Assembly (NCBI RefSeq): GCF_022846255.1
Contig: NZ_AP025682.1
From: Escherichia coli
Lineage (GTDB): Bacteria; Pseudomonadota; Gammaproteobacteria; Enterobacterales; Enterobacteriaceae
Direction: 5' to 3' (one strand)
Length of the DNA stretch: 64,000 nt
The translations under genes and the position numbers were made by a program. Numbering within the stretch: the stretch's first letter is position 1; the number at the start of each line of letters is the position of its first letter. The notes beneath the pieces were generated by a model, which saw only the letters and a program-made list of their open reading frames with translations, was not told the origin of the DNA and made no database searches. This document shows, piece after piece, positions 14,179 through 37,718 of this stretch.

Positions 14179-14213
14179 CATTATTCTGCAAAACATGGAA
14201 TTTTGACATTAAC

Positions 14214-14239
14214 GCCGGATGGAGATTAATCCATCCGGC
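14214..14239. terminator. 10-bp perfect inverted repeat (gccggatgga / tccatccggc) between convergent genes
   Basis: Hairpin read directly from the sequence between the hypT stop and the NhaC-like gene stop; no strong U-tract, so terminator function is uncertain. Confidence 0.35.
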
Positions 14240-14264
14240 AAACGCATTTATTATCTTGAATAAC

Positions 14265-15668: not shown

Positions 15669-15682
15669 AACTTTATTCCCTG

Positions 15683-17053: not shown

Positions 17054-17339
17054 ACTTTATCTCCGTATTCAATAATTGAGTAAAACAATCCCCCGCGCTT
17101 ATATAAGCGCGTTGATATTTTTAATTATTAACAAGCAACATCATGCTAATACAGACATACAAGGAGATCATCTCTCTTTGCCTGTTTTTTATTATTTCAG
17201 GAGTGTAAACACATTTTCCGCCTCCCTGGCTAATAACCACATTGGCATTTATGGAGCACATCACAATATTTCAATACCATTAAAGCACTGCACCAAAGTG
17301 AAACACTGCGACATTAAAATTATTTCAATTTGAAAAGCA

Positions 17340-19289: not shown

Positions 19290-19667
19290 TCAAGTCATTT
19301 TCAGAACTTGTATCAGAATGCTATGCCAGTAAGCTTGATCAAACGCAATAATATCTAGCCTGGATCATTACAAAAACAGACCTTATCAACAATGTAATCA
19401 CACATACATTAGAAATAATAACCGTTAAAGCAATAAAAAACGAATGATACATTAGATAAATTTTAAAACTGCCAACAACATCTGAAATCTTTGCGTTTGA
19501 TATTTATAATTATTCAAACTGAAACAACACAGGCATACGAGTTGTTTCACTGTGAAACAGTGCAGCGAAATTTGTTCTGCCCTTTTATTTCCTCAAAGAT
19601 ATTTCATCGTTAAATTCCAAAATTGACTGACTATTCAACTCAGCGTAAATATCAGGAGAAATAATGT

Positions 19668-21407
19668 ATGGCGAGGATGCGTGCAATCGAAGCTGCAGTA
19701 GAAATACTGAAAAAAGAAGGCATTAGCGTTGCTTTTGGTGTACCCGGCGCAGCAATAAACCCACTCTATGCCGCGATGAAAAAATCAGGCGGTATTGATC
19801 ATATTCTGGCCCGTCATGTTGAGGGCGCCTCGCATATGGCTGAAGGTTACACCCGCAGTCAGAATGGCAATATTGGCGTGTGTATTGGCACATCAGGCCC
19901 TGCGGGCACTGATATGATTACCGGGCTGTATTCTGCCTCTGCGGATTCCATTCCTATTCTCTGCATTACTGGTCAAGCTCCCGTAGGAAAACTTCATAAA
20001 GAAGATTTCCAGGCCGTCGATATTGAGGCTATCGCCACGCCAGTAACCAAAATGGCTCGCACAATTCTCGAAGCGGGTCAGTTGCCGGGGATATTCCAGA
20101 AAGCCTTCTGGGAAATGCGTTCAGGCCGCCCTGGCCCGGTTCTTTTAGATCTCCCTTTTGATGTTCAGATGACCGAAATTGAGTTTGATATCGATCTCTA
20201 TCAGCCACTCACTCCCTGGAAACCCCAGGCGACGCTGGCCCAGGCCGTACGCGCATTAGAAATGCTAAATGACGCCGAAAAGCCCGTCATCATCGCTGGC
20301 GGTGGCATTATTAACGCCGAAGCGAGTGAATTGTTGCGTGAGTTTGTCGAGTTAACTGGCGTTCCCGTCATTCAAACCTTACGCGGTTGGGGCGCTTTAT
20401 CAGACGATCACCCCCTAATGATTGGTCGCATGGGATGTCAGGCGGGTCATCGCTATGGTAACGCCAGTTATCTGGCCTCAGATTTTGTTTTTGGTATCGG
20501 TAACCGTTGGGCAAACCGCCATACCGGAGCCATTGAGACCTACACCGAAGGCCGCAAATTCATTCATGTTGATATCGAACCTGCACAAATTGGCCGGATA
20601 TTTGCGCCGGATCTGGGCATTGTTTCTGATGCTGAAAGCGCCTTAACGCTATTTATTCAGGTCGCCCGTGATATGAAGTCACGTGGAGAACTGAAAGACC
20701 GCAGTCGCTGGATTGCCGAATGTGCCGAGCGTAAACGCACAATGCTTCGTCGTTCAGACTTTGACTGCAATCCAATTAAACCGCAGCGCGTGTATCACGA
20801 AATGAATAAGGTTTTCGGACCGGAGACACGCTATATTTCGACAATTGGTCTGGCGCAAATCGCCGCAAACCAATTTTTACATGTTTACCGCCCACGCCAC
20901 TGGATTAATGCCTGTCAGGCTGGGCCGCTAGGCTGGACAATGCCCGCAGCACTGGGCGCGGTAAAAGCTGATCCATCTGTTCCCGTTGTGGCAATATCCG
21001 GTGATTACGATTTTCAGTTCTTGATTGAAGAATTAGCCGTCGGCGCACAATTTAATCTTCCGTATATCCATATTTTACTTAACAACGCTTATCTTGGTTT
21101 GATTCGTCAATCACAACGTGCATTTGATATTGATTATTGCGTTCAACTGTCATTTGAAAATATTAATGCTCCAGAAATTAATGGTTATGGCGTTGATCAT
21201 AAAGCTGTGGTTGAAGGATTAGGATGTAAAGCGATTCGCGTATTCGCATCACAGGATATTGCGCCTGCACTGCAAGAAGCCCAGCGTTTGCGTGACGAAT
21301 TTCACGTACCTGTTGTTGTGGAAATTATTACTGAACGCGTGACTAATATCGCTATGGGACCTGACATTAATAAAGTCACAGAATTTGAAGAAATTCTCGA
21401 TTTATAA
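19668..21407 (+). CDS. gcl: Glyoxylate carboligase-like thiamine-diphosphate enzyme
   Basis: 579-aa TPP enzyme whose N-terminal region (GVPGAAINP...[19 protein letters not shown]...[32 protein letters not shown]) closely resembles Gcl as I recall it; followed by hyi-, glxR- and glxK-like genes. The symbol denotes a paralogue, not necessarily the allantoin-regulon gcl. Confidence 0.75.
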
Positions 21408-21419
21408 GGAAACAGGATT

Positions 21420-22202
21420 ATGGCAAAGTTTGCAGCAAATTTATCTATGCTCTTTACCGAGTATCCATTTATTGAACGTTTTGCACAAGCAAGTCACGCA
21501 GGATTCCACGGCGTTGAGTATCTTTTCCCCTATGACTTTTCCGCAGATGAGTTGGTTTCGCAACTGCATCAACATAATCTGACGCAGGTTCTGTTTAATC
21601 TTCCTGCGGGTAACTGGCAAGAGGGTGAACGGGGTATTGCATGTCATCCTGGTCGGGCAAAAGAATTTCAGGAGGGCGTTTCCAGGGCAATAGAGTATGC
21701 ATTGGCCCTTAATTGTTCACAAGTTAATTGCCTTGCAGGAAAACATCCAGGTGGTTATTCGCATGAACAATGTCATGAAACACTGGTCGAAAATTTGCGC
21801 TATGCAGTAGATAAATTGGCTTCTCATGGCATAAAGTTAGTTCTGGAAGCCATTAATACAAAAGATATTCCCGGTTTTTTTGTTAACAACACCAGACAAG
21901 CTCTCAATATTATTCATGATGTAAATCATCCTGATTTTCGCTATCAATACGATATTTATCATATGCAAATCATGGAAGGGAATATTGCTACAACAATCAA
22001 AAACAACCTGAATAACATTGGACATATTCAATTAGCCGATAACCCTGGGCGTCATGAACCAGGGACGGGAGAAATTAATTACCCGTGGTTGTTAAATTAT
22101 ATAGACCAGATTGGTTATCAGGGATGGATTGGTTGCGAATATGTTCCATCTACGACAACGACTGAAAGTCTACGCTGGCTAAAAAACGAGACTCAATTTT
22201 AA
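21420..22202 (+). CDS. hyi: Hydroxypyruvate isomerase-like TIM-barrel protein
   Basis: 260 aa with N-terminal FAANLSMLFTEYPF and Hyi-like motifs (GEINYP, GWIGCEY); 12-nt gap after the gcl-like gene. Confidence 0.75.
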   Translation: MAKFAANLSMLFTEYPFIERFAQASHAGFHGVEYLFPYDFSADELVSQLHQHNLTQVLFNLPAGNWQEGERGIACHPGRAKEFQEGVSRAIEYALALNCSQVNCLAGKHPGGYSHEQCHETLVENLRYAVDKLASHGIKLVLEAINTKDIPGFFVNNTRQALNIIHDVNHPDFRYQYDIYHMQIMEGNIATTIKNNLNNIGHIQLADNPGRHEPGTGEINYPWLLNYIDQIGYQGWIGCEYVPSTTTTESLRWLKNETQF

Positions 22203-22219
22203 TCCCTGAGGTATTTATC

Positions 22220-23107
22220 ATGAATATTGGATTTATCGGCACCGGCATAATGGGTAAGCCGATGGCTTATAATTTACAACAAGCCGGACATACTCTTTAT
22301 TTTTCAGCGCATTTTGAACCTGCACCGCAAGAGCTTATTGGTGAACGTGGCATTGTTTGCTCTACACCGCGTGAAGTCGCGCAGGAGTGTGAGGTCATCA
22401 TCACCATGCTCCCTGATACCCCACATGTTGAGGATGTTCTTTTTCATCCCAACTATGGCGTAATACACGGTTTAAGCCACGGGAAAATTGTGATTGATAT
22501 GAGTTCAATTTCCCCGGTTGCCACCAAAGCATTTGCACAACGTATTATCGCGGGAGGCGCGGAATATATCGATGCGCCCGTCTCTGGCGGTGAAGTTGGC
22601 GCGAAAGCCGGGACGCTTTCCATTATGGTTGGCGGATGTGAAGAGGTTTATTTGCAGATCAAACCGATTCTGGAATTGATGGGTAAAAATATCACTCTGG
22701 TCGGTAACGTCGGTGATGGTCAAACGTGCAAAGTCGCTAACCAAATTATTGTTGCACTGAATATTGAAGCGGTGGCTGAAGCCCTGCTCTTTGCCAGTAA
22801 ATCAGGTGCCGATCCCGCCCGCGTACGTGAAGCGCTGATGGGAGGGTTTGCCTCCTCTCGCGTGCTGGAAGTTCATGGCGAACGGATGATTAAAGGAACA
22901 TTCGAACCCGGTTTTCGTATTAGTCTGCATCAAAAAGATCTGAATCTGGCGCTGGAGAATGCCCGCCTGTTGAATACCCCGCTTCCTAACACGGCGACGA
23001 CACAGCAGTTATTTAGCGCCTGCGCCGCGCTCGGTGGTAAAGAGTGGGATCATTCTGCGTTAATTCGGGCGCTTGAAACACAAGCCAATTTCACTATCCG
23101 TAAATAA
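22220..23107 (+). CDS. glxR: Tartronate semialdehyde reductase / 3-hydroxyisobutyrate dehydrogenase-family NAD(P) oxidoreductase
   Basis: N-terminal Rossmann motif GFIGTGIMG and conserved GDGQTCKVANQIIVALNIEAV...MGGFASSRVLEVHGERMIK block. Confidence 0.75.
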   Translation: MNIGFIGTGIMGKPMAYNLQQAGHTLYFSAHFEPAPQELIGERGIVCSTPREVAQECEVIITMLPDTPHVEDVLFHPNYGVIHGLSHGKIVIDMSSISPVATKAFAQRIIAGGAEYIDAPVSGGEVGAKAGTLSIMVGGCEEVYLQIKPILELMGKNITLVGNVGDGQTCKVANQIIVALNIEAVAEALLFASKSGADPARVREALMGGFASSRVLEVHGERMIKGTFEPGFRISLHQKDLNLALENARLLNTPLPNTATTQQLFSACAALGGKEWDHSALIRALETQANFTIRK

Positions 23108-23181
23108 TGAATTAAGGGAACCACCGGTTCCCTTCGTTCACTCATTGCCCTGCCCCATTCCCCTATTTTGAGAGACCTGCT

Positions 23182-24324
23182 ATGAAGATAGTTATCTCCC
23201 CCGACTCCTTTAAAGAATGCCTTCCTGCATGGAAAGTCGCCGAAGCGCTGGCAACCGGCTGGCGCAAGGTCCTGCCTGGCAGCCAACTGGTGTGTTTGCC
23301 CGTGGCTGATGGCGGCGAAGGCACGCTCGAAACACTCATTCATGCGACTGACGGTACGTTTTACACTAAAAAAGTCACCGGACCGCTTGGCGAATCAATA
23401 CATGCGCAATACGGTATTTTAGGCAACCAAACCACCGCAGTGATAGAACTGGCACAAGCTTCAGGGCTGGAACTGGTTTCTCCTGTCCAGCGTTCTCCCC
23501 TTTATACGACGTCGTTTGGCACTGGCGAACTTATTCTCGCCGCCCTGGAACACAATATTGATACCGTTATTCTATGCCTGGGTGGCAGTGCTACAAATGA
23601 TGGCGGTATTGGGTTGATGTCGGCACTTGGCGCATCGTTTACAGACGCCGAAGGGCTATCAGTCTCTGTTAATGGGATGGGGCTGGCGGCAATTCACCAC
23701 ATTGACTTACAGCACCTCGATCCACGATTGAAAAATGTGAAATTTATTGCGGCCTGTGATGTCACCAACCCACTAACCGGCGATAACGGCGCGACCCGGG
23801 TTTTTGCTCAACAAAAAGGGGCCAGTGCTAACGACCTTGAGCAACTGGAACAGGGAATGAAAAACTATGCCCGTTGCATCTACCGTTGTTGTGGTAAAGA
23901 CGTCGATACGATACCCGGTTCTGGGGCGGCTGGCGGCGTTGGCGCGGCCTTGATGGCTTTTCTCGATGCTCGCTTACAACCGGGTATTTCGCTCGTGCTG
24001 GAAGCGATTCAATATACCCAACATTTAAAATACGCAGCATTGGCCATTGTCGGTGAAGGGAAATTAGATAGTCAGAGCCTGAATGGCAAAGCGCCCGTAG
24101 GCGCAGCCAAAGTTGCCCAGATGATGGGCGTTCCGGTTATCGCAATTGCCGGGTATATCGATGATCAACTTGATCTGAATGAGTTACGCCAGTGTGGAAT
24201 AGAAGCCTGTTTTTCCGTCGTCAATGGTCCTTGTGATTTCCCCACCGCGCTGAGTCAGGGAGAAAATAATTTAATTCGTCTTGGGGAAAATCTGGCGGGA
24301 TATTTTCGTGCGATCCTGAGTTAA
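23182..24324 (+). CDS. glxK: Glycerate kinase
   Basis: 380-aa glycerate kinase-family protein (MKIVISPDSFKE...LPVADGGEGT...); last gene of the gcl-hyi-glxR-glxK operon. Confidence 0.75.
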   Translation: MKIVISPDSFKECLPAWKVAEALATGWRKVLPGSQLVCLPVADGGEGTLETLIHATDGTFYTKKVTGPLGESIHAQYGILGNQTTAVIELAQASGLELVSPVQRSPLYTTSFGTGELILAALEHNIDTVILCLGGSATNDGGIGLMSALGASFTDAEGLSVSVNGMGLAAIHHIDLQHLDPRLKNVKFIAACDVTNPLTGDNGATRVFAQQKGASANDLEQLEQGMKNYARCIYRCCGKDVDTIPGSGAAGGVGAALMAFLDARLQPGISLVLEAIQYTQHLKYAALAIVGEGKLDSQSLNGKAPVGAAKVAQMMGVPVIAIAGYIDDQLDLNELRQCGIEACFSVVNGPCDFPTALSQGENNLIRLGENLAGYFRAILS

Positions 24325-24379
24325 TTCCCGTTCGTTAAAATGCCCGATAATGCAAATTACCGGGCATTCCTGAATATCA

Positions 24380-25906
24380 TTATTCATCTCTCGCGGTTTT
24401 CTCTTCAGCCGCAAGCTGTGTCAAAAAACTCTTCAATAAAATAAACACTACGCCGCAAAGCGGTAGTCCGGCCAGGATAGAGACCGTTTGTAGCGGCTGC
24501 AAACTCTGCGCATCAAGAAGATAGAGTGTGATGGCGACGATTCCAGTCATAATCAACCAAAATGCCACGTTCCAGAATGCCGGTTCACTCTCACTATCTG
24601 CCCGTTTTTGCGTCGCAAAACCGAGGGCATAACCCACAGTACAGTGTCCGGTAATATATGAAATTAATGCTATAGCCCCAAAAGCAACCAAAAACACCTG
24701 ACTTGCGGGTAGCTGCTCCAGTAAACGAGAAACGACAACGCCTCGCCCTTGTTCGTTAAGTATGGGAACAAAATCGATGACATGAGTTGTCTGCAACGAT
24801 AAGCCGAAATTAGCCAGTACCATGTAAAAAAACATGCATCCCAATGAACCTGCCAGAGCTCCACATACAATCAATTGCCGGATCGTCCTTCCTTTTGAAA
24901 TACGGGCGATAAATAAACCGAATGGGATGGCATACACGACCCACCATGAAAAATAAAATACGGTCCACATCTGTGGAAATCCGCTACGACCAATAGCATC
25001 GGTACTTAAACTCATCGCTACAAAATTTTGCAGCATCAGGCCGAGACCATCAATTGATTGATTAAGTATAAATGCCGTTGGTCCACAAATCAGTATTGCA
25101 AGTAGCATCAAAATGTCAGCACGAATATTCCAGTTACTGGCCCATGCCACACCTTTTTTAAGTCCAAAAAAGAGAATGAATAATGGCACTAGCGTCCAGA
25201 TAAAAATAACCATGACATTGATAAACTGCCCGGCAGGATCCAGATGAAACACATGGCAAAATACGGCAGAAATCATCGGCGTTCCCAGCGCCAGAGACGT
25301 TACCGCGCCGCCGAGCAAACCAAACATGTAGAAAAAATTCACACAATGCCCGCAAAAACCATCCGCACGCGCTCCCAAACATCCACGACATAAATCACTG
25401 ACCTTTAATGAGTTTGTTTTCTTAACATGCATAAACCAACCAATAGGAACGGCACAAATCAGATACCACGCCCATGCGGACGGCCCCCAATGGAACATGC
25501 CATAAGCAGAGGCCCAACGAGCAGCCTGAGCGCTTCCTGCTGTTGCGCCAAAAGGCGGTTGCTGAATGATCCAAATCCACTCTACAGAGGCCAGATATAA
25601 CAAGCTGCCCCCCGTTCCAGAAGTAAAAATAAGTCCAAGCCAGGTTAACAAGCTGAAGTCAGGTTTTTCTCCCGACTGACCTAACAAGATATCGCCATAA
25701 CGTGAGAAGGCCAGCCACAGACAACAAAGTACAACCAGAAAAATCCCGCCCATTTCCCAGGTTAAAAAATGATGTATTTTATTTATATACCGGCTGGTAT
25801 CTTGTGGATATATCGTCAAACACAGAATGATTACCGCAATAAATAATATTGCTGGGATAAACACATTCAGTTCAATCAAAGAAAAGCGTTTTTTTAAATA
25901 TTGCAT
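24380..25906 (-). CDS. BCCT-family transporter (betaine/carnitine/choline type)
   Basis: Polytopic protein with a BCCT-like signature (WTVFYFSWWVVYAIPFGLFIARISKGRTIRQ). The start is placed at the internal ATG 25904-25906, which has an aggag SD; the track ORF extends to 26032. Confidence 0.7.
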   Translation of the reverse strand: MQYLKKRFSLIELNVFIPAILFIAVIILCLTIYPQDTSRYINKIHHFLTWEMGGIFLVVLCCLWLAFSRYGDILLGQSGEKPDFSLLTWLGLIFTSGTGGSLLYLASVEWIWIIQQPPFGATAGSAQAARWASAYGMFHWGPSAWAWYLICAVPIGWFMHVKKTNSLKVSDLCRGCLGARADGFCGHCVNFFYMFGLLGGAVTSLALGTPMISAVFCHVFHLDPAGQFINVMVIFIWTLVPLFILFFGLKKGVAWASNWNIRADILMLLAILICGPTAFILNQSIDGLGLMLQNFVAMSLSTDAIGRSGFPQMWTVFYFSWWVVYAIPFGLFIARISKGRTIRQLIVCGALAGSLGCMFFYMVLANFGLSLQTTHVIDFVPILNEQGRGVVVSRLLEQLPASQVFLVAFGAIALISYITGHCTVGYALGFATQKRADSESEPAFWNVAFWLIMTGIVAITLYLLDAQSLQPLQTVSILAGLPLCGVVFILLKSFLTQLAAEEKTARDE

Positions 25907-25929
25907 TTCAGTCTCCTGAATGTTTTCAT

Positions 25930-26154
25930 TCAATGAGGACGAATATTTCGCCGTTCCTTTTTCATGTGTTGCAATTGTCGGGAAAGGCGTAAAGAAAAAA
26001 AGGCGCAAATAAGTGAAAGAGCCGCAATACAATACAGAGCTAAACCACGCTGATGCTGTTGCAGCATGAACAGGAATATCCCCAAAAAGAGGCCGCAGAG
26101 AACTGTGGTTATCCAGTAATTGGCACTTAAGTGCTCCAGGTCATCATCCCTCAT
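25930..26154 (-). CDS. Small 2-TM membrane protein (74 aa) immediately upstream of the BCCT transporter gene
   Basis: ATG at 26152-26154 (reverse strand) preceded by aggaga; stop 23 nt before the BCCT start; two hydrophobic helices. Codon-by-codon reading places this ORF on the minus strand although the supplied track labels it +. Confidence 0.5.
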   Translation of the reverse strand: MRDDDLEHLSANYWITTVLCGLFLGIFLFMLQQHQRGLALYCIAALSLICAFFSLRLSRQLQHMKKERRNIRPH

Positions 26155-26206
26155 GGTCTTTCTCCTGCAAGGCGCAGACAGGCTTTCAGCTCTCTGCGCC
26201 TTGTTG

Positions 26207-27601
26207 TTATGCCAGACGTACGCCCTGCTGTTGCAGCGTGTTTTGCAAATCAGGGATAGCAACCTGACGCACGGTGCAATTTTGCTGTAGCGAAACCACG
26301 GCGGCAGTACCTGCGGCCTCACCGGTAACGGCACAACACATCATGTTACGCATAGAAGTATGTGCAACTACGCCTGCGGAAATACAGCGACCGGCGACCA
26401 AAAGGTTCTCCACTTTTTGCGGCACCAGACAACCATAAGGGATCTGAAAGAAACGCCCGGTCGTTGGCAAAATGAGATAACCGGAACCATCAATAAATTC
26501 CGGGAAAATCCCTACACTGTCCGAACAACGCCCCTGATTAAGGACGTAATCATCAGCAATACGTATTTCCCCCTCAATAAGCCGTGATTCACGCGTCCCC
26601 AGCGTGGCACCAAAATTGCGTAACCGTACATTTTCAAAGCCCGGAACATAATGGCGTAGAGCGTCAATTGCCCATAATGCTTGCTGCCTTCCGGCAATCT
26701 CAGCTTTGGTTAAATCGAAGACATCGGTACAGTCAAAACCAAAGGCGTACACCATATTCATCTGGAAAGCCTCACCGCTTTCAGAAAAGGTCGACCAGGT
26801 TCCGGCAATCGCCTGGGCGTCACCTGGAATCACACCATCCTGTTGCGCGCGGGTAAAAATATCCTCCATATACGGGCTAAACATCGGGTCTTCTTTACCC
26901 GTGGTTTGAATCGTCCAGTTTTTGCCCCAATCCGCGTAGGTCGGCTTAAGTTCTTCCGCAACAAAACGGTTAAAGCGTGCCACATCAACACCTGCGCAAC
27001 TGAACATCACGGTGACGCCCATCAGTTGGTCCTTGCTCCGTTTCGTCCAGGGCGCGCCTGCACGAGCGGCAATATCAGCATCCCCCGTGCAATCGACGAT
27101 TCTTTTCGCCAGAATTGCCCCTCGACCTGATTTATTCTCGACGATAACACCGCATAACGTATTCCCGTCCTTGATCACGTCCACAACCCAGGAGTGATAT
27201 AACGGCTCAACGCCAGATTCCGTAATCATCTGATCGGCGACAACTTTAAATCCTTCAGTATCTATAACTTCGCTAATTGACTGAGGTTCTGGTCGTGTGA
27301 AGCCCAATGCTCGCGCGCGGCCTTCATATTCACGACAAATCCCTTCACAATCTTCCGTCCCCGGATGGCGATACCAGGCAAAACTTTCCACACCAACCTG
27401 CGTCAATACGCCGCCTAGTGAGCCGTAACGCTCAACAATCATGGTTCTGGCACCTAGCCGCCCCGCCGCTATCGCCGCCGTTAATCCTGCCGGACCGCCC
27501 CCGATAACCAGAACGTCCGTTTGTGCAATGACTGGCGTTTGCCGTGCACTTTCATTAATCATGTCCACCATTGGTTCCCCCGTCAGATTCAGGATGCGCA
27601 A
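26207..27601 (-). CDS. FAD-dependent oxidoreductase, paralogue B
   Basis: N-terminal VLVIGGGPAGLTAA FAD-binding motif; paralogue of 15683..17053. The start may be one of the downstream in-frame ATGs, because 27589..27601 overlaps the MFS gene. Confidence 0.8.
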   Translation of the reverse strand: MRILNLTGEPMVDMINESARQTPVIAQTDVLVIGGGPAGLTAAIAAGRLGARTMIVERYGSLGGVLTQVGVESFAWYRHPGTEDCEGICREYEGRARALGFTRPEPQSISEVIDTEGFKVVADQMITESGVEPLYHSWVVDVIKDGNTLCGVIVENKSGRGAILAKRIVDCTGDADIAARAGAPWTKRSKDQLMGVTVMFSCAGVDVARFNRFVAEELKPTYADWGKNWTIQTTGKEDPMFSPYMEDIFTRAQQDGVIPGDAQAIAGTWSTFSESGEAFQMNMVYAFGFDCTDVFDLTKAEIAGRQQALWAIDALRHYVPGFENVRLRNFGATLGTRESRLIEGEIRIADDYVLNQGRCSDSVGIFPEFIDGSGYLILPTTGRFFQIPYGCLVPQKVENLLVAGRCISAGVVAHTSMRNMMCCAVTGEAAGTAAVVSLQQNCTVRQVAIPDLQNTLQQQGVRLA

Positions 27602-28857
27602 TCCGCATTGTTTTGAGTGATTTCATTGACTTGATTTTTACTTTTACGATTCACACGCTGGAGGACCAGTGCGGCGATAAGGCCGATGAATGCGCAAACC
27701 AACATGAACAGGAAAACATCCTGATAACCGGCAATACCCGGTTTGCGGTCGACCATATTGCCCACCATCGTGTAGCAGTAGATTTCCGGGAAATAGGTCA
27801 GTAAAGAGATCAGACCCGCAGCAGTCCCTGTGACTTTTGCCGGGATCCGAACCTCATCAATAATTGAGAAGAACACGGCATTCGCAGAGTAAATAAACAC
27901 GCCCAACGCAACCATATTCGCCAGCGCAATAGTGACGTAGCGCGACTCACCGGGCAGGAAGAAATAAACGGTAGTAAAGACAATCATGCCGATAAAGGCG
28001 TAAATCATAAAACGCGTGCGTGACGCACAGCGGTCGGCCAGTTGTCCGCCAATTAATCCCCCCATCGCAAATAACACATAGGCGCGAAGAATACTGGCAA
28101 CTGCCACTTCCGATTCGCCCATATGCAGGATCTGCGTGAGATACGGCGTGACCATGCCAAAGCCGATATAAATTGACCACATACAAAAGGTCACAACACC
28201 TGCCAGCCAAACCGTCGGCATTTTCAGCACGAATGCCATATCTGCCAGACGGAAATTCGCTTTATCTTCGCTGTGCGTTTCATCCTGACAAACAAACCAG
28301 GCTAAAACACCGGCCAGAATAGTCACTACGGAATAAAAAATAATTGTCGCCCGTAAACCATCAACACCTTCGCCAAATTTGGCAAATACCGGCACGGAAA
28401 GAAATCCCAGTACAATGGAGGTTAATCCCTTACCCAGAAACCAGTAACCGTATAAGCGACCTTGTTCTTCGCTGGTTCCCAGGGTACGAATAATTCGCAC
28501 ACACACGGCCCAAAACGTAAATACGGTTGTAACAGCCCAAAGTGCATGTAACAAACAGATCATGGTATACGAGGGGAAGGTCGCATAATAAAAACCACTT
28601 ATCCCGGTGGAAATTAATGAAAAGGTCATTAATTTACGTGCAGAAAATCTATCGGCAGCCCAACCGCCAGGTAGATATAATAAAAAGTTCACCAGACCAT
28701 AGGCTGTCATTAGAAAACCAAGTTCAGCATTAGTCGCTCCTGTAGCCTGCTGCATCGCGTCGTAATAGGTTTCCCGTAAATAAGGCAATTTATATATTGC
28801 ACTTCCGGCAATACCACATAACGCCAGCGTGATCCAACGTTTCCAGTTACTGGTCAT
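27589..28857 (-). CDS. MFS transporter
   Basis: 422-aa 12-TM-type protein; first transporter of the gldA-like / MFS / FAD-oxidoreductase / BCCT minus-strand gene string. Confidence 0.75.
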   Translation of the reverse strand: MTSNWKRWITLALCGIAGSAIYKLPYLRETYYDAMQQATGATNAELGFLMTAYGLVNFLLYLPGGWAADRFSARKLMTFSLISTGISGFYYATFPSYTMICLLHALWAVTTVFTFWAVCVRIIRTLGTSEEQGRLYGYWFLGKGLTSIVLGFLSVPVFAKFGEGVDGLRATIIFYSVVTILAGVLAWFVCQDETHSEDKANFRLADMAFVLKMPTVWLAGVVTFCMWSIYIGFGMVTPYLTQILHMGESEVAVASILRAYVLFAMGGLIGGQLADRCASRTRFMIYAFIGMIVFTTVYFFLPGESRYVTIALANMVALGVFIYSANAVFFSIIDEVRIPAKVTGTAAGLISLLTYFPEIYCYTMVGNMVDRKPGIAGYQDVFLFMLVCAFIGLIAALVLQRVNRKSKNQVNEITQNNADCAS

Positions 28858-28922
28858 ATTTATTCCCGAATGAAGTATTTAAAATGACACCAACGGCCTG
28901 CTTTGCACAGGCCGTATTATTT

Positions 28923-30005
28923 TTAAAGTCCCAAATGATGTGCAGTTAAAATTGCACAAAGAACGTCCTGCGCTGTTACTACGAATGGCATATTATGGAT
29001 AGTTTCCCCTTCAGCAGTCGCGGCTTTAGCCACTGCCCGTAATTTATCTTTATTAATTTCCTTCACGCCTAACATATGAAGATTTGTCGGCAAGCCAACG
29101 CTATGGCAGAAATTGAGTACGGTTTCAATTTCCTCCTGTGGTGCGTTTTCCAGTACGAGCTGTACCAGGACGCCAAATGCCACTTTTTCACCGTGGTAGC
29201 AATGATGGCATTCCTCCAGTTGCGTCATGCCGTTATGAATGGCATGAGCTGCCGCCAGGCCGCTACTTTCAAATCCAATGCCGCTAAGATAGGTATTAGC
29301 TTCGATAATATTCTCTACCGCTTTGGTGCTAACACCTTGTTCAACCGCGACTTTTGCCTTATAGCCATCTTCCAGTAGCGTGGTATAACAGAGTCGGGCA
29401 ATAGCCAGTGCCGCCAGTGTCGACGCCCCACCTGCCATTGTGGCTTTTCCTGACGCCTGATTGGCTCTCGCCTCAAACCAGGTTGACAATGCATCTCCCA
29501 TACCGGCCACCAGCAGACGCACTGGCGCGGCTGAAATGACGCCAGTATCCATAATCACCATATCCGGGTTTTTCGGGAAAAACAGATATTCGCTAAACTG
29601 ACCTTCCGGGGTGTAAATTACCGCCAGAGAACTGGTTGGCGCATCTGTGGAAGCAATTGTCGGCACCACCACCACCGGAATTTTTTGGTAATACGCTACG
29701 GCTTTTGCCGTATCCAACGTTTTACCGCCGCCAATACCAATAACGACATTATATTTACGCTGATTAAATTTCTCACGAATTCGAGAAATTTCATTTTGCG
29801 AGCATTCACCACAAAAGATATCAAAATCTGCAGTAATATTTTCTTTTGCAAAGCTCTGGCTTACTCTGTCACCCACCAGACCGGTCACAAATTCATCTGC
29901 AATAATTAATGGTTCTGTTCCCAAACTCGCCGCATATGTAGCAATATTATCCAGAGAACCATTTCCCTGGATATATTTAGCCGGACTTATAATAATCTTA
30001 TCCAT
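28923..30005 (-). CDS. gldA: Glycerol dehydrogenase-like iron-containing/group III polyol dehydrogenase
   Basis: 360 aa with GldA/DhaD-family motifs (GGGKTLDTAKA, metal-binding His cluster); divergent from dhaKLM. Symbol denotes a paralogue. Confidence 0.75.
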   Translation of the reverse strand: MDKIIISPAKYIQGNGSLDNIATYAASLGTEPLIIADEFVTGLVGDRVSQSFAKENITADFDIFCGECSQNEISRIREKFNQRKYNVVIGIGGGKTLDTAKAVAYYQKIPVVVVPTIASTDAPTSSLAVIYTPEGQFSEYLFFPKNPDMVIMDTGVISAAPVRLLVAGMGDALSTWFEARANQASGKATMAGGASTLAALAIARLCYTTLLEDGYKAKVAVEQGVSTKAVENIIEANTYLSGIGFESSGLAAAHAIHNGMTQLEECHHCYHGEKVAFGVLVQLVLENAPQEEIETVLNFCHSVGLPTNLHMLGVKEINKDKLRAVAKAATAEGETIHNMPFVVTAQDVLCAILTAHHLGL

Positions 30006-30324
30006 ATCATTCCTCGCGTAACTTGTTTTGCTTCACTGTTAACCTACTCGTTGCATCCAGTAGCGGCAAACATTTCATTCGCGAAAAATTATGTTTTATG
30101 ATCGCGCTGTAAAAAACATCATCTGCAGATGATAATAAAAAACACTTTTCATGCCTTAATCACAATATATCAATATCCACGCTGGTCCCATTTCATTTTG
30201 GAACAACACAATGAATTAACTGTTTCATTATGAATCTTATTATCGTGCGATTTGTTTTATTGCGGCTGGAGAATTAATCTCGCAAGCATATTTAGCGCGA
30301 TTTACGTAATTTATCAGAACAGGA

Positions 30325-31395
30325 ATGACTATGAAGAAATTAATTAACCAGATTGATTCTGTTGTCACAGAACAAATGGAAGGACTCATCGCCACCTGGC
30401 CACACCTGCAGGCAAATTACGCGCCCCGATATGTGTGGTGCAAACAAACCGATAATGCAGTGGCGCTGATTTCAGGCGGCGGCTCAGGCCATGAACCACT
30501 GCATGCAGGTTTTGTCGGTATGGGAATGTTAACCGGTGCATGTCCTGGTGAAATCTTCACATCGCCCACACCAGATCAAATGATCGAATGTGCCAAAGCG
30601 GTTGATAATGGTTCTGGCGTTCTGTTTTTCATCAAAAATTACACTGGCGATATTCTGAATTTCGAAACGGCAGTCGAGATGTTACACGAAGAAGGCATCG
30701 CCGTTGGGACCGTCATTATTGATGATGATGTAGCGGTAAAAGATAGCCTGTATACAGCCGGACGTCGCGGTGTTGCGGGTACAGTTTTTGTTGAAAAGAT
30801 TGTCGGTGCGGCTGCACTTCAGGGATATAACCTGGGGCAGTGCGAGCAACTTGGCAAAGATGTTAACAATGCCACCCGTTCTTTTGGCATCGCACTGTCA
30901 GCCTGTACGGTTCCCGCCGCGGGAAAACCCTCATTTGAACTGGCTGATAATGAAATCGAATTTGGTGTCGGGATCCACGGTGAACCCGGCATTGAACGCC
31001 GCACTTTGCAAGATCTGAACACTTTAATCGACAGCGTGATAGCGCAATTACTGGATAATACCCCCTGGCGACGCACATTACGCCATTGGGATCGCCATGC
31101 GGGGGGATGGATTGACGCATCATCAATGAATGAGTCATTCGATCAAAATGCCGAATATATTGTGTTAATTAACGGACTTGGCAGCACGCCTGAATCAGAG
31201 TTATATGGTGTAGCCAGGGTATTTATGTGCGCCGCACAGCGCCAGGGAATTAAAATTAGCCGCCAGTTGGTCGGTAATTATTGTACATCATTAGATATGG
31301 CCGGATTTTCCATTAGCCTGCTGAAATGTACCCCAGAGTTTTTGCAACTTTGGGATGCCCCGGTCAATACGCCAGCGCTTCGTTGGGGATGTTAA
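30325..31395 (+). CDS. dhaK: Dihydroxyacetone kinase, substrate-binding subunit DhaK
   Basis: 356-aa DhaK-family protein (GGGSGHEP motif). Confidence 0.8.
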   Translation: MTMKKLINQIDSVVTEQMEGLIATWPHLQANYAPRYVWCKQTDNAVALISGGGSGHEPLHAGFVGMGMLTGACPGEIFTSPTPDQMIECAKAVDNGSGVLFFIKNYTGDILNFETAVEMLHEEGIAVGTVIIDDDVAVKDSLYTAGRRGVAGTVFVEKIVGAAALQGYNLGQCEQLGKDVNNATRSFGIALSACTVPAAGKPSFELADNEIEFGVGIHGEPGIERRTLQDLNTLIDSVIAQLLDNTPWRRTLRHWDRHAGGWIDASSMNESFDQNAEYIVLINGLGSTPESELYGVARVFMCAAQRQGIKISRQLVGNYCTSLDMAGFSISLLKCTPEFLQLWDAPVNTPALRWGC

Positions 31396-31407
31396 TAAGG
31401 ACATTAT

Positions 31408-32040
31408 ATGAAAATTCAAAACAAACATGTTATTGCCTGGCTGGAGAGTTGTGCTGCACATCTTACTGAACAACAAGATTTTCTAACCGCACTTGACAGA
31501 GATATTGGTGATGCCGACCACGGCCTCAATATGAATCGTGGTTTCAGTGCCGTGAAAGCGACGTTGCCCGACATTGAACGTCAGCATATTGGCAATATCC
31601 TTAAAAATACTGGCATGAAACTACTTTCCAGCGTTGGCGGTGCCAGTGGTCCTCTTTACGGCACATTATTTATTCGCGCTTCTGCGGCAGTGGGAGCCAG
31701 AACAGAATTAAGTCTGGAAGAGTGGCTGGCGTGTCTGGAAGAAGGGATTGCAGGCGTTATCGCACGAGGAAAAGCAGAACAAGGGGATAAAACACTGTGT
31801 GATGTCTGGGTTCCAGTCCTCCACGAAGCCAAAAAGAACCTGCAAGCCGGAATGTCGCCTTCCCTTCTGCTGAATACGATGGTGCAAGATGCGGCAACAG
31901 CCGTCGATAACACCATCAATATGCAGGCGAAAAAAGGACGTGCCAGTTATCTCGGCGCTCGCAGTGTGGGCCATCAGGATCCAGGCGCGACCTCCTCCTG
32001 GCTGATGATTAAGGCTATGCAGGAAGGATTCGCGGGATAA
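31408..32040 (+). CDS. dhaL: Dihydroxyacetone kinase, ADP-binding subunit DhaL
   Basis: 210-aa DhaL-family protein (DRDIGDADHG motif). Confidence 0.8.
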   Translation: MKIQNKHVIAWLESCAAHLTEQQDFLTALDRDIGDADHGLNMNRGFSAVKATLPDIERQHIGNILKNTGMKLLSSVGGASGPLYGTLFIRASAAVGARTELSLEEWLACLEEGIAGVIARGKAEQGDKTLCDVWVPVLHEAKKNLQAGMSPSLLLNTMVQDAATAVDNTINMQAKKGRASYLGARSVGHQDPGATSSWLMIKAMQEGFAG

Positions 32041-32043
32041 ATT

Positions 32044-34425
32044 ATGGTTGCCATTGTTATTGTTTCTCATAGTCTACGTCTCGCCCAGGGGATTGAGGAA
32101 TTAGCACTACAGATGTCTGGAGGGGACGTTCCTCTGGCCATTGCTGCAGGTATTGATGATCCGCAACATCCGATTGGCACTGATGCTATTGCCATTATGT
32201 CTGCGATTGAATCGGTCTGGTCACCGGATGGCGTTCTGGTACTCATGGATATGGGCAGTGCGCTGCTTAGTACCGAGATGGCGCTGGAGCTGCTTTCTGA
32301 AGAGCAAAGAAGTGCAATTTATCTGCTCGCCGCCCCTGTAGTGGAAGGTGCCATGTCAGCGGTAACGTCTGCCGCAGCGGGGCTTTCGGTGACGGAGATT
32401 ATCGCTGAAGTGGATCTTGCGCTGTGCGCTAAACAGCAGCAGCTCATGCCATCCCCGCCTGCAGGCGAGGTTATTCCAGCAATATCACCAGTCAATCATT
32501 CCGGTGAATGGCAAACTTTTTGCTGGACGATATGTAATCCCCACGGCATTCATGCTCGTCCGGCAGCCAGCATCCTGAAAGTATCAGCACAATATTCGGC
32601 AAACATTATCGTCATCAAAGGCGATAAACGCGCCAGCACCCGCAGTCTCAACGAACTGGCAATGCTGGGCGTCCGCTGTGGCGATGAAATCATCTTCCAG
32701 GCCGAAGGCACCGATGCCAGTGACGCTCTCAAGGCAATTGAAACGTTGGCGAAAAATCATTTTGGTGAAGCTCACCTGCTCGCTTCTTCAGAGATTCCGC
32801 TAACGGAAACGCCGGTGGTCAGCGCCCCTGTCGATGGCGCAATATCAGGCTTGTCAGTACAAAATGGTATCGCTATTGGTCCTGTTAAATGGTTTACCTG
32901 CGAACGACCAGAAATTACGCAGCGCACCGTCGATTCTCCGCAAGAAGAGCTGTCGCGAATCGAGTCTGCTATCGACATTGTTGTTTGTGAACTTGCCGAT
33001 AAAGCGGCAGGCCCTGAAGGCGATATTTTTGCCGCCCATAAAATGATGCTTGAAGATCCAGAGATTAACCGGCAATTACAGCAACGTCTGGCAAAGGGCA
33101 AACAGGCGGAATTCGCATGGTTAGAAGTCATGCAGGCATTAGCAGAGCAATATTGTCAGGCGGAAACACTGTATTTACGTGAACGCGAGGCAGATATCCG
33201 TGACCTTACACGTCAGGTACTGAACCAGCTTTGCGGGGTAAGTGAACAACACTTTATCACTACCGCGCCCTGCATTTTGTTAGCCAACGATCTGTTGCCA
33301 TCACAGATAACCAGCCTGAATAAAGCACACATTCTTGGCATTTGTCTTCATAACGGCGGAACAACTTCACATACAGCGATCCTTGCCAGAGCAATGGGAA
33401 TCCCCGCTATTGTGAAAGCGGCGATTACCCCGCAAAACGTCCGCGATAACGACACGGTCATTCTTGATGGTGAAACAGGCCGTTTGTGGCTACAGCCGGA
33501 TGAGGTCACCCGCCTGGATTTACTGCAACGCGCCGAAGCATGGCGGCAACAAAGGGATCGTCAGTTAGCTGATGCCATGCTGCCCGCTGTCACGCAAGGT
33601 GGGCGTAAAATCAGCGTGCTGGCGAATATTGGTGATCTGCAAGACATTGATGCCGCACTGTCTCACGGCGCTGAGGGCGTTGGCTTGCTGCGTACCGAGT
33701 TTTTATTCCACGATTCTGCGACATTACCTGATGAGGAAGAGCAGTTCCGTGTGTATTGTTCTGTCGCCCGAGTTTTTGGCGACAAACCAGTCACGATCCG
33801 GACTCTGGACATTGGTGGTGATAAACCGCTACCTTCATACCCTTTACCCACAGAGGACAACCCCTTCCTGGGACTTCGAGGTATCCGGTTGTGTCTGGCG
33901 CATCCACAAATATTTATTCCTCAATTGCGCGCACTTATCAGGGCCGGGAAAGAATACCCAACGTTGCAAATTATGCTGCCGATGGTTTCAACGCTCGAGG
34001 AGGTCAGGGCCGTCAAAACATTGATACATGCTCAGGCAAAACTGCTGGAACTTACTGCAGAAAATCTTCCGGCGCTGGGAATTATGATTGAGGTTCCTGC
34101 CGCAGTCATGATTGCAGACAAATTAGCCAGTGAAGTCGATTTCTTTTCCATCGGCACCAACGATCTGACGCAATATATTATGGCGGCAGACAGAGGAAAT
34201 AGCACCGTCGCGAAACTGGTCGATTATTGTAATGACGCGGTGATTAACGCTATTGCTATGGTGTGTCAGGCCGGACGTAATAATGAAATTCCGGTCAGTA
34301 TGTGCGGCGAAATGGCTGGAGATATCCAGCAAACAGCACGACTGCTCACCATGGGGATTGATAAGCTCAGTGCCAGTCCATCCCGGCTTCCGGCCTTGAA
34401 AGCAGCAATCAGAATCTCCCACTAA
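32044..34425 (+). CDS. dhaM: Multiphosphoryl transfer protein: DhaM-like EIIA + HPr + full-length PTS Enzyme I fusion
   Basis: N-terminal DhaM/EIIA-Man-like segment (IVSHS...GIDDPQHPIGTDA...MDMGSALLS), HPr-like segment (GIHARPAA), and a complete EI domain. From memory, K-12 DhaM carries a truncated EI domain. Confidence 0.75.
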   Translation: MVAIVIVSHSLRLAQGIEELALQMSGGDVPLAIAAGIDDPQHPIGTDAIAIMSAIESVWSPDGVLVLMDMGSALLSTEMALELLSEEQRSAIYLLAAPVVEGAMSAVTSAAAGLSVTEIIAEVDLALCAKQQQLMPSPPAGEVIPAISPVNHSGEWQTFCWTICNPHGIHARPAASILKVSAQYSANIIVIKGDKRASTRSLNELAMLGVRCGDEIIFQAEGTDASDALKAIETLAKNHFGEAHLLASSEIPLTETPVVSAPVDGAISGLSVQNGIAIGPVKWFTCERPEITQRTVDSPQEELSRIESAIDIVVCELADKAAGPEGDIFAAHKMMLEDPEINRQLQQRLAKGKQAEFAWLEVMQALAEQYCQAETLYLREREADIRDLTRQVLNQLCGVSEQHFITTAPCILLANDLLPSQITSLNKAHILGICLHNGGTTSHTAILARAMGIPAIVKAAITPQNVRDNDTVILDGETGRLWLQPDEVTRLDLLQRAEAWRQQRDRQLADAMLPAVTQGGRKISVLANIGDLQDIDAALSHGAEGVGLLRTEFLFHDSATLPDEEEQFRVYCSVARVFGDKPVTIRTLDIGGDKPLPSYPLPTEDNPFLGLRGIRLCLAHPQIFIPQLRALIRAGKEYPTLQIMLPMVSTLEEVRAVKTLIHAQAKLLELTAENLPALGIMIEVPAAVMIADKLASEVDFFSIGTNDLTQYIMAADRGNSTVAKLVDYCNDAVINAIAMVCQAGRNNEIPVSMCGEMAGDIQQTARLLTMGIDKLSASPSRLPALKAAIRISH

Positions 34426-34434
34426 TTGTGACCT

Positions 34435-34463
34435 AACGCGATACGTCTTGCGCGTATCGCGTT
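34435..34463. terminator. 11-bp stem hairpin (aacgcgatacg / cgtatcgcgtt) between the convergent dhaM-like and iraD genes
   Basis: Perfect inverted repeat 10 nt after the dhaM-like stop, followed by ttt; plausible factor-independent terminator. Confidence 0.45.
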
Positions 34464-34472
34464 TCCCGTCAT

Positions 34473-34865
34473 TTACTGCGGCATCGTGCGATGCCAGTTC
34501 CCCTTCTGCCAGACCAGGTCAAACGTTAGCGGCTCATCATCGTGGTACAGCATCATCTCCAGACTAATGGCCAACTCGTGGCAATAGGCTTCTTTCAGAT
34601 TGACCTGCAATGCCGCAATACGTGGCTCATGAAATAAAAGCGCGGAACGTAACTGGCGGCAATACCAACTCTGGAGAAGCTTGTCGCTCTGATTATGCCC
34701 TTGCCACTCAGGCATGCCTGAAACAAGTAATATTGGTAGCGGTGAATGGGGAGAACTAAAAAGTTGAAAGAGATCCCGGCATACGGAATCACGCAGCGAT
34801 AACGTATTGTTTCCTGTACTTTCAGGTAATACCGTCTGAACTGATTGGCGCATCATTTTGCGCAC
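34473..34865 (-). CDS. iraD: Anti-adapter protein IraD (inhibits RssB-mediated RpoS degradation)
   Basis: 130-aa product (…[18 protein letters not shown]…[50 protein letters not shown]…) matching IraD as I recall it. Confidence 0.85.
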
Positions 34866-35269
34866 TCCTGACGTTTAGTGGCATCTGTATCCTGCCCTGG
34901 CTGCCGGACACCACTGGGTTGATGCTCATATTCCATAATCATTCCTTTATGCTCATTGCGTCCCTGGCACTTTCATAAAGGATTTATAAGATCCGCCAAA
35001 GATAAAACACTGTACAGAAAAGAATATCCACTGACTTTTAATTTAAAAAGGTATCATTTGACAAAAGTCATTAAACATAACGGAAATACGTTAACATATT
35101 CTGATTATTCCGAATAATTTCTCAGCGTTAAACTGATATATAATTATTCCAAAACAATATATCGTACGTAATGATTAAATTACGCATAATATATTCTGCA
35201 GAACATAATTAACTATTCAGGGAACATACATAGTGCAAAGCGGTTAAACTTTGCACCAGAAATGAGGGA

Positions 35270-36043
35270 TCAGGCGTCGACTTTATCCAGCGGCCATGAA
35301 TCAAACAGATAGCCATCGAAATAGATGTCATCAACATTAGAGAACTCCAGCAAGCGCTGCTTCACATTCTCCAGATGCTGCCACATTGCCAGCTTCGCCG
35401 CTCGGGCATCTTTTTTGATTAACGCGGCGAGGATCTGTTTGTGATCGCCCAACCACTCTTTGCGATACAGGCTGTCATCCAGGTGGCTGTGCAACTGGAT
35501 CCACATTGGATTGTTTTCCCGCCACTGCCAGGACTGACGGAATAACTCCACCAGCATGCTGTTATGCGTTGCTTCGGCAATAGCGAGATGGAACTGCATG
35601 TCACCGCTTTCGCTGCTGCCCGGCGCGCTGGAAGCCAGTTCACGCTCTTCCAGTTGCAATGCCTGGCGCATTTTGACGATATCTTCGCGGGTAGCCTGCA
35701 GGGCGGCAAACTCGGCGATGTTACTTTCCAGTAACTGCCGCGCCTGTAACAGCTCAAAAGGACCGGCATCGTTGCAGACGTTGGCATCCGGACTGTCTGC
35801 GTTGTGGCTGCCTGAGCTATCAAGAACATAGATACCTGCACCCCGACGCACTTCCACCAGCCCTTTGATCTCCAGCATGATCAGCGCTTCACGTACCACC
35901 GTCCGCGTGACATCAAGCATTTCTGCAATTTCACGCTCCGGTGGCAGCCGTTCGCCAGGATTGTACGGCGTCTTTATGATCAGATCGCGGATCATCGCCC
36001 CGACTTCCTGGTAAGGTCTTTGCGCAGAGGTGGCAGATTTCAT
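35270..36043 (-). CDS. uxuR: GntR/FadR-family repressor of the uxu regulon
   Basis: 257-aa GntR-family HTH protein with FCD domain. Confidence 0.9.
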   Translation of the reverse strand: MKSATSAQRPYQEVGAMIRDLIIKTPYNPGERLPPEREIAEMLDVTRTVVREALIMLEIKGLVEVRRGAGIYVLDSSGSHNADSPDANVCNDAGPFELLQARQLLESNIAEFAALQATREDIVKMRQALQLEERELASSAPGSSESGDMQFHLAIAEATHNSMLVELFRQSWQWRENNPMWIQLHSHLDDSLYRKEWLGDHKQILAALIKKDARAAKLAMWQHLENVKQRLLEFSNVDDIYFDGYLFDSWPLDKVDA

Positions 36044-36082
36044 GGTGTTGTGTCCGTTAGGTGCGGTTAATCAAATTTTTTC

Positions 36083-36114
<32 letters not shown>

Positions 36115-36257
36115 AACGGGCAATTTTACGGCACCCGTTAAGCTCAAACTATACCATTAGCACTGGATGTTGGCACGTACAGGTGGGCAAAAAAACGAAA
36201 ACTGGTCAACCAAATATTAGTTTGATTGACCAGTAAGTCTGTAGGGTAATCAGTTAG

Positions 36258-37718
36258 TTACAGCGCAGCCACACACTCGCGCGCACCGCGCTCACACAGC
36301 TGCTGATATGCCGCCGTCACCGCGCCGACAAAGTCGGCGTTCTGCGGCAGATCATCGGCAAAGATACCGCTCAGGCCCAGCAGTGCTTTCACGCGGTCTG
36401 CACCCTGATACTGCGCGTTGATCTTCTGGAACTCCGCCAGCATCGGGTCAACCACGTCAATGGCATTACCCTGCTCATCCACGCCCTGGGTGTAGCGCAT
36501 CCAGCCCGCCACGCCCAGCGCCAGGTGACGCCAGCTGCCGCCGTTTTGCAGGTGCAGACGCACAGGGTCCAGCAGACGCTGCGGTAACTTCTGGCTGCCG
36601 TCCATCGCAATCTGCCAGGTGCGGTGACGCAGAGACGGGTTGCTGAAACGCTCGATCAGCAGCGTCGCATAGGCGTTCAGGTCCGTACCTTCCGGCATCG
36701 ACAGCGTTGGCGCTTGTTCCTGCATCATCAGGGCAAAGGCCGCTTTGCGATAATCCGGATTAGTCATGGTGTCGGCAATAGTTTCATAGCCACCGAGGTA
36801 ACCGAGGTACGCCAGGAAAGAGTGGCTACCGTTCAGCATACGCAGCTTCATCATTTCGAACGGTACAACATCCGCAACAAACTGCGCGCCGACTTTATCC
36901 CAGTCCGGGCGACCATTAACGAAGTTATCTTCAATCACCCACTGACGGAACGGTTCGCAGGCAATGGCGCACGGGTCGTAAACACCCAGCTGGTCAGCAA
37001 TTTCCTGTAAGGTTTCTGGCGTCGCCGCCGGAACGATGCGGTCAACCATGGTGCACGGGAAGGTGACGTTTTCTTCAATCCATGCCGCCAGCTGTGGATC
37101 ACGCGCCTGAGCCAGCCCAAGAACGGCAACCTTCGCCACATGACCGTTTTCACGCACGTTGTCGCAGGACATCACCGTAAATGCTTTCAGCCCTTTTTCA
37201 CGACGCAGACGCAGGGCTTCTACGATGTAACCAATCGCGGACTTCGGCGCAGTCGGGTTTTCCAGATCGTGCTTAATCAGCGGATTATTGAGATCCAGCT
37301 GACCGCTTGCCGCATCGGCGCAATAACCTTTCTCTGTGACCGTCAGGGAGACAATCGCCGTCTGCGGACGCGCCATCGCGTTGAGAATACCTTCACAACC
37401 GTCGATTTCCGGATGCAGGGCTTCTTTCATTGAACCGATAATTTTCAGCTCGGTGCTTTCCGCGCCTTTTTCCGCCACGGTGTACAGCAGTTGCTGTTTT
37501 TTCAGGTTTTCGATCAGCACGCGGTCGTTGCCTGGCATCAGGTTAACTTCGCAGATACCCCAGTCGCTGTCGGTGCTTTCCAGCAGATGATGGGTGTACA
37601 GCGCCTGGTGCGCGCGGTGAAACGCCCCGCAACCGAGATGCACAATGCGTGATTCCAGACGAGAATGATCCCATGACGGGCGGGCAACCGGCAGATTGCT
37701 GTCAACAATAGTAGTCAT
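36258..37718 (-). CDS. uxuB: D-mannonate oxidoreductase
   Basis: 486-aa mannitol dehydrogenase-family protein. Confidence 0.9.
   Translation of the reverse strand: MTTIVDSNLPVARPSWDHSRLESRIVHLGCGAFHRAHQALYTHHLLESTDSDWGICEVNLMPGNDRVLIENLKKQQLLYTVAEKGAESTELKIIGSMKEALHPEIDGCEGILNAMARPQTAIVSLTVTEKGYCADAASGQLDLNNPLIKHDLENPTAPKSAIGYIVEALRLRREKGLKAFTVMSCDNVRENGHVAKVAVLGLAQARDPQLAAWIEENVTFPCTMVDRIVPAATPETLQEIADQLGVYDPCAIACEPFRQWVIEDNFVNGRPDWDKVGAQFVADVVPFEMMKLRMLNGSHSFLAYLGYLGGYETIADTMTNPDYRKAAFALMMQEQAPTLSMPEGTDLNAYATLLIERFSNPSLRHRTWQIAMDGSQKLPQRLLDPVRLHLQNGGSWRHLALGVAGWMRYTQGVDEQGNAIDVVDPMLAEFQKINAQYQGADRVKALLGLSGIFADDLPQNADFVGAVTAAYQQLCERGARECVAAL

Follow-up and report, generated by a model that had tools for sequence, protein, structure and literature searches.

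The interval between uxuR and iraD in the window, the 64-kb stretch of Escherichia coli DNA analysed here, contains no yjiC, and this absence marks one end of a single block of alternative sequence, ~21 kb long and bounded by the stop codons of uxuR and hypT (14183..35269). The block most probably (at roughly 0.85) belongs to a long-standing haplotype polymorphism with several parts in the uxuR-hypT region of Escherichia, of which it would be the 'short' allele. This allele would have arisen by the loss of yjiC together with the distal iraD promoter P1, followed by divergence and inter-species recombination. The yjiC-less interval is an ordinary lineage haplotype or marker and not a new kind of element; it is annotated in hundreds of public genomes and the locus is known to be polymorphic. 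In itself the presence/absence polymorphism of yjiC, a gene of unknown function, is of little weight. The variable block containing the GimA island is larger than published, stretching up to the uxuR stop codon and taking in an iraD allele of its own, which alters how 'GimA-negative' chromosomes can have arisen. Likewise, results on the regulation of iraD in K-12 (P1/P2, CsrA, ppGpp) are not simply transferable to the ExPEC lineages that carry GimA or its remnant, because P1 is absent there.

Content and edges of the uxuR-iraD interval

In K-12 MG1655 the uxuR-iraD interval is 1643 bp long and contains yjiC, ytiC, ytiD and idlP. An earlier note on this DNA places yjiC between uxuR and iraD on the K-12 map, which is correct: yjiC (b4325) is an 831-bp DUF2686 gene located there on the opposite strand. 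In the window, uxuB, uxuR and iraD all lie on the minus strand (Table 1) and the interval measures 413 bp from the K-12-type iraD ATG (34856), or 404 bp (34866..35269) from a GTG located further upstream. The GTG at 34865 is the first start codon past the upstream stop and is the origin of the 34866..35269 interval; the ATG at 34856 is equivalent to the K-12 iraD start and is the start used by RefSeq in a 99.9%-identical genome. The earlier description of the interval as about 400 bp of AT-rich, non-coding DNA with no ORF of the size of yjiC holds as far as length, composition (35% G+C) and ORF size are concerned, the biggest ORFs listed being 53, 42 and 35 aa in length. The term non-coding does not hold, as idlP, the P2 promoter and leader region of iraD and the uxuR hairpin are all located within the interval; idlP was missed by the ORF listing because its 27 codons are too short for it.

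The absence of yjiC extends to the whole 64-kb window, in which a tblastn search with K-12 YjiC finds no homologue (best E = 1.2). No DUF2686 (PF10887) ORF of ~275 aa is found between uxuR and iraD, where nothing exceeds 53 aa, and the positive controls for PF10887, K-12 YjiC and the corresponding E. albertii ORF, score 1.8e-165 and 4.2e-110, respectively. A search of positions 34700-35400 against Rfam returned only chance-level matches (E = 0.46 and 0.84) that fall far under the gathering scores.

Table 1. Features of the window and stretches compared with K-12 (positions in the window; P2, BS and box features refer to the iraD leader)
Feature	Position	Strand	Remarks
hypT, iadA, yjiG stretch	11556-14182		97.8% to K-12 (blastn)
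Stretch unmatched in K-12	14183-34500		no match (blastn); GimA
GimA locus (ibeRAT, gcl/glx genes, dhaKL, pptE/ptsP)	14183..34472		no K-12 homology; completes the block up to the hypT stop
ibeA	15683..17053		matches annotated ibeA
pptE/ptnI, full length	32044..34425		2382 bp, 793-aa ORF; 47 bp from the iraD stop
iraD, divergent allele	34473..34856 (..34865 if GTG start)	-	127 aa; 82% DNA and 79% protein identity to K-12; different C-terminus
Stretch matching K-12 -264 (relative to the iraD ATG) to near the iraD end	34501-35119		77.8% (blastn)
idlP (ORF27) leader peptide	34853..34936	-	27 codons; stop overlaps the iraD start (ATGA); length and overlap as in K-12 idlP
iraD P2 promoter and leader region	34857..35119	-	homologous to K-12 -264..-1; 71% identical (29% diverged)
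Extra GGA in idlP	34890-34892		between BS4 and the iraD Shine-Dalgarno; not in K-12
BS4 GGA	34932-34934 (-78)	-	aligned with K-12 CsrA site
BS3 GGA / idlP Shine-Dalgarno	34943-34945 (-89)	-	aligned with K-12 CsrA site
BS2 GGA	34961-34963 (-107)	-	aligned with K-12 CsrA site
BS1-like GGA	34992-34994		offset by 4 nt relative to K-12
Candidate P2 -10 hexamer TATCTT	34999..35004	-	aligned with K-12 TATACT
ytiD trace (aa 24-46, C-terminal half)	35057..35125	-	65% identity, tblastn E = 3e-5
Palindromic box TATTCGGAATAATCAGAATAT	35096..35116	-	upstream of P2
150-bp haplotype-specific segment	35120..35269		no match in K-12 (blastn); stands in place of 1379 bp of K-12, replacing yjiC, P1, ytiC and the 5' part of ytiD
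Imperfect inverted repeat	35156-35195		17-nt arms, 82% complementary, 6-nt spacer
uxuR terminator hairpin, short haplotype	35231..35258	-	GGUGCAAAG..CUUUGCAC, -15.1 kcal/mol, weak U tract (terminator scan; fold z = -4.8)
uxuR	35270..36043	-	96.1% to K-12; last gene at K-12-level identity before the break
uxuR, uxuB, uxuA stretch	35270-39380		96.7% to K-12 (blastn)
uxuB	36258..37718	-	
gntP, mostly deleted	~39380-39711		124-bp piece remains

Alignment of the interval with K-12, as the earlier note had proposed, shows that the two are not co-linear. In blastn comparisons the K-12 similarity over uxuR stops exactly at the uxuR stop codon and restarts 150 bp further on at ~78% identity, and a level of identity typical of K-12 (98%) is regained only at hypT, past the 20-kb GimA island. 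The 150-bp segment at the break remains unmatched in K-12 even with sensitive blastn settings. When this segment was aligned locally with each of four parts of the K-12 interval and compared with 300 shuffles per part, no deletion scar emerged (z <= 1.3), and a global alignment with cheap gaps recovered fragments only. A palindrome match of the segment at K-12 6662-6682 (17/21) was dropped, since 44 of 300 shuffles reach it. The imperfect inverted repeat located inside the segment is kept in the copies from cryptic Escherichia species.

Beyond the other end of the uxu genes, K-12 homology running from uxuA stops inside gntP at 39380. Most of gntP is deleted, and only a 124-bp piece of its other end, 79% identical, remains after this position.

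Distribution of the short form and transfer between species

The short form, represented by the 150-bp segment, is present in 491 of the 5426 complete E. coli genomes surveyed, with 98-100% identical sequence and the same junction. The K-12-type interval is found in 4911 genomes of the same survey, consisting of 4891 that are K-12-like and 20 that also carry GimA. About 24 of the genomes surveyed fit neither form of the interval. The 3' end of pptE, which is present both in GimA-positive genomes and in the 342-bp remnant of the island, was detected in 511 genomes and ibeA in 246. A chimeric query composed of the pptE 3' end and the K-12 interval showed that yjiC and GimA occur together in exactly 20 genomes (SMS-3-5 among them). 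As 511 minus 20 is 491, each genome with a short interval has GimA or its remnant beside iraD, and all genomes with GimA or the remnant but those 20 have the short interval. This bears out the view in the earlier note that the interval, together with the island, points to a lineage distinct from K-12: the short form is discrete, and in E. coli GimA or its remnant is always adjacent. All four GimA-remnant strains that were inspected carry the same short interval and iraD allele. SMS-3-5 combines yjiC, P1, the K-12-type leader and K-12-type iraD with a full GimA, and switches to GimA-type sequence within the last ~40 nt of iraD.

GimA was identified in the window from the annotation of a 99.9%-identical genome and from the description by Homeier et al. 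(2010, PMC2878320). The window is GimA-positive, with a full pptE downstream of iraD, with ibeA, and with ~20 kb between iraD (yjiD) and hypT (yjiE). The pptE ORF is annotated as ptsP in matching genomes, and the annotated ibeA to which the window corresponds is that of the 246 genomes mentioned above. pptE/ptsP is intact in the window. The annotation of NZ_CP098214.1, which at 99.9% identity over iraD-uxuR is the nearest public genome, gives dhaL and ptsP as fragments of pseudogenes.

Scanning species-representative genomes with an IraD alignment yielded six loci, a thin outgroup sample in which E. fergusonii, E. marmotae and E. ruysiae were not recovered under those names. In E. albertii a DUF2686 gene whose product shares 63% of its residues with K-12 YjiC is located in the interval and a full-length pptE lies beyond iraD, so that yjiC and GimA coexist. 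Escherichia sp. E1V33 has a short interval (412-417 bp) with a GimA remnant beyond iraD, and E. whittamii has a short interval but no GimA, its iraD overlapping hypT as in K-12. The short interval is also found in SCPM-O-B-8794 and E69, which bear the submitter label E. coli but are separate species representatives. Neither of these two has a 303-aa hypT ORF after iraD; the large ORF that comes next has 390 aa, just as iadA does in the window and in K-12, and hypT thus seems to be missing or disrupted. The sixth locus is a 605-bp contig of the Bacillus coahuilensis m4-4 assembly (NZ_ABFU01000118.1) that encodes an Escherichia IraD and is almost certainly a contamination of that assembly.

Pairwise identities show that the relationship of the window flips at the edges of the block, which is similar to cryptic Escherichia inside and to K-12 outside. 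In this comparison the cryptic group comprises E1V33, E. whittamii and SCPM-O-B-8794. Outside the block, uxuR of the window is 89.5-90.1% identical to that of the cryptic genomes and 96.1% identical to that of K-12. Within it, the window shares 92-97% identity with the cryptic genomes in the 150-bp segment, for which K-12 has no homology, 96-98% in the iraD leader (71% with K-12) and 92-97% in iraD (82% with K-12). For hypT, on the far side, the identity is 89-92% to E1V33 and E. whittamii, the only two cryptic genomes compared, and 98.2% to K-12; as the underlying alignment mixed hypT and pptE sequences, the within-group values alone were used. Because the non-coding leader is more conserved across species than the neighbouring genes, this pattern is best explained by transfer of the short block between species.

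The GimA remnant provides a second case. The 342-bp remnant of E. coli APEC E14033 (L004:2425-2870) and that of E1V33 (L009:6378-6825) are 97% identical and share exactly the same deletion junction, and the final 76 nt of hypT in the E. coli strain are 96% identical to E1V33 compared with 93% to the window. The shared junction and the closer relationship of the hypT end to E1V33 therefore indicate that the remnant allele crossed a species boundary.

Origin of the haplotype and relation to the GimA polymorphism

The preferred account is that the ancestral arrangement would have included both yjiC and GimA, as found in E. albertii and SMS-3-5, and that a loss of ~1.2-1.4 kb would have removed yjiC and P1 from one haplotype lineage. 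The short haplotype would then have diverged and spread by homologous recombination between cryptic species of the genus and those lineages of E. coli that carry GimA or its remnant. We infer this direction of change, an ancestor with both elements being favoured because E. albertii and the SMS-3-5 group carry both. However, among the five non-coli representatives of Escherichia species that were recovered, four carry the short form, a distribution that is equally readable as ancestral. It would suit a history in which the short form is ancestral in Escherichia and yjiC was gained together with P1, ytiC and ytiD on the haplotype of K-12-like E. coli. The short form is indeed old, since E69 carries a well-diverged version of it (with identities of 69% over the 150-bp segment and 80% over the leader), and the segment shows no deletion scar that can be told from shuffled sequence. 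Such a gain is nevertheless unlikely in view of E. albertii, the deepest branch sampled, which has yjiC at the same position, GimA, and the leader to which that of K-12 is nearest (83%). Furthermore, YjiC of E. albertii and YjiC of K-12 share no more than 63% identity, a divergence that speaks for long residence at this site and against a recent insertion, and the short block is near-identical across species whose flanks are at 90%, meaning that its wide distribution is in part a result of transfer and not of age alone.

Far less probable than a gain of yjiC is its recent, simple deletion from a K-12-like chromosome in the window strain or its close relatives. The net difference in size (1643 versus 413 bp) is close to that of yjiC and its upstream region, but the flank that remains shares only 71-82% identity with K-12, against 96-98% for the neighbouring genes, the 150-bp stretch at the junction is foreign to K-12, and the same junction recurs in the 491 genomes and in other species. 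The blastn break points and the segment identities refute this explanation. An assembly or sequencing artefact that collapsed the interval is the least credible explanation of all and is refuted by the same junction, at 98-100% identity, in 491 independently finished genomes.

Loss of yjiC and P1 followed by divergence and exchange bears on the known polymorphism of the GimA locus. In ExPEC three states have been described, namely GimA-positive, a 342-bp pptE remnant and GimA-negative (Homeier et al. 2010, PMC2878320). Going by that study, the short-form genomes include strains of the ST95 complex as well as CFT073 and 536, which carry the remnant. The same study sets the bounds of the locus at yjiD (iraD) and yjiE (hypT), mentions neither yjiC nor uxuR, and proposes that GimA-negative chromosomes derive from the remnant by a second deletion. 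The polymorphism reported here affects that same locus in those same strains, and the short interval is present in both GimA-positive and remnant genomes; it differs in that the variable block reaches through iraD to the uxuR stop codon. Because K-12-type GimA-negative chromosomes have a different iraD allele and yjiC, a further deletion in the B2 remnant cannot have produced them, and a form with both yjiC and GimA, similar to SMS-3-5, would be their more plausible precursor. The loss of GimA reported for ST131 clade C, together with a change in the fim operon (PMC7671891), fits a replacement of the whole region by recombination. Phylogroup-specific mosaic intergenic regions such as mutS-rpoS (o454-nlpD) are drawn on as an analogy by Homeier et al. 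(2010, PMC2878320) and in the abstract of PMC4209514. In such regions discrete alternative gene contents occupy a fixed chromosomal position and track the phylogroup, which resembles the situation between uxuR and hypT; it is a different locus, compared by analogy alone.

A literature search found no paper mentioning the yjiC side of the GimA-locus polymorphism and nothing specific on E. coli yjiC/DUF2686 or on iraD allele variation in ExPEC. The Bacillus 'YjiC' glycosyltransferases that carry the same name are unrelated.

Predicted consequences for iraD and its regulation

Transcription of iraD in K-12 is known to involve a distal sigma-70 promoter, P1, located within -547..-413 and ~280 nt upstream of P2, and the proximal promoter P2, for which the fusion spans -253..-134 and transcription starts at -138 (Park et al. 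2017, PMC5574718). ORF23 and ORF47 (now ytiC and ytiD) sit between P1 and P2, and the leader contains ORF27 (idlP) and the CsrA sites BS1-BS4 (PMC5574718). Like the K-12 region, the window has idlP overlapping the iraD start (ATGA), a region homologous to that of P2, GGA motifs at BS2-BS4 and the Shine-Dalgarno and start of iraD. Unlike K-12, it lacks P1, ORF23 and the start of ORF47, and it has an altered P2 -10 hexamer, a shifted BS1-like GGA and an extra GGA in idlP. P1, ytiC and the first half of ytiD are absent because homology of the window to K-12 starts only at -264, and no sequence of P1 or ytiC was found anywhere in the window. The trace of ytiD lacks a start codon and the N-terminal half, and no ORF of at least 30 aa is present on that strand.

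Transcription from P2 would start near 34992, going by the position of the K-12 start. P2 may be active in the window allele, as judged from its alignment with the K-12 promoter in which the -10 hexamer is changed. A scan with consensus promoter motifs gave two sites where 2.2 are expected by chance, and P2 was not called. The palindromic box upstream of P2 is near-invariant in all iraD-leader haplotypes aligned, including that of E69 and largely that of E. albertii, in surroundings that differ by 20-30%, and may be the binding site of a regulator. Further downstream, the ribosome-binding and start region of iraD is perfectly conserved in the leader alignment. Across eight sequences the consensus fold of the leader is only modestly structured and contains a single compensatory pair, which is not enough to claim a conserved hairpin sequestering the Shine-Dalgarno sequence.

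Without yjiC, uxuR and iraD are neighbours and co-directional, and read-through from uxuR into iraD is therefore conceivable. The hairpin that follows uxuR in the short haplotype differs from the one at the same place in K-12, which is formed by GCGCAAGG..CCUUGCGC at -17.1 kcal/mol and followed by UUUCUU. Transcription of iraD in this haplotype would thus depend only on the proximal, P2-type promoter or on read-through from uxuR, and its translation would still be coupled to idlP and open to repression by CsrA. In ~9% of finished E. coli genomes iraD has no P1 and follows uxuR directly, in the same orientation and behind a hairpin with a poor U tract. It is a tentative idea, judged from sequence, that iraD and with it the stability of RpoS may be wired differently there than in K-12, with expression relying on P2 only or on read-through from uxuR and with a protein that is 79% identical, and that the whole iraD regulatory cassette has been exchanged between E. 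coli and cryptic Escherichia species.

The IraD protein of the window matches the Pfam family GPW_gp25 (2.3e-12). The W64/R67/R70 triad, S71, Q84 and the EPRI motif of IraD have been shown to contact RssB (Dorich et al. 2019, PMC6546054), and in the protein alignment the window and K-12 agree at W64, R67, R70, S71, E77-I80 (EPRI) and Q84. Because these contact residues are kept, IraD of the short haplotype is expected to remain an anti-adaptor that binds RssB and stabilises RpoS.
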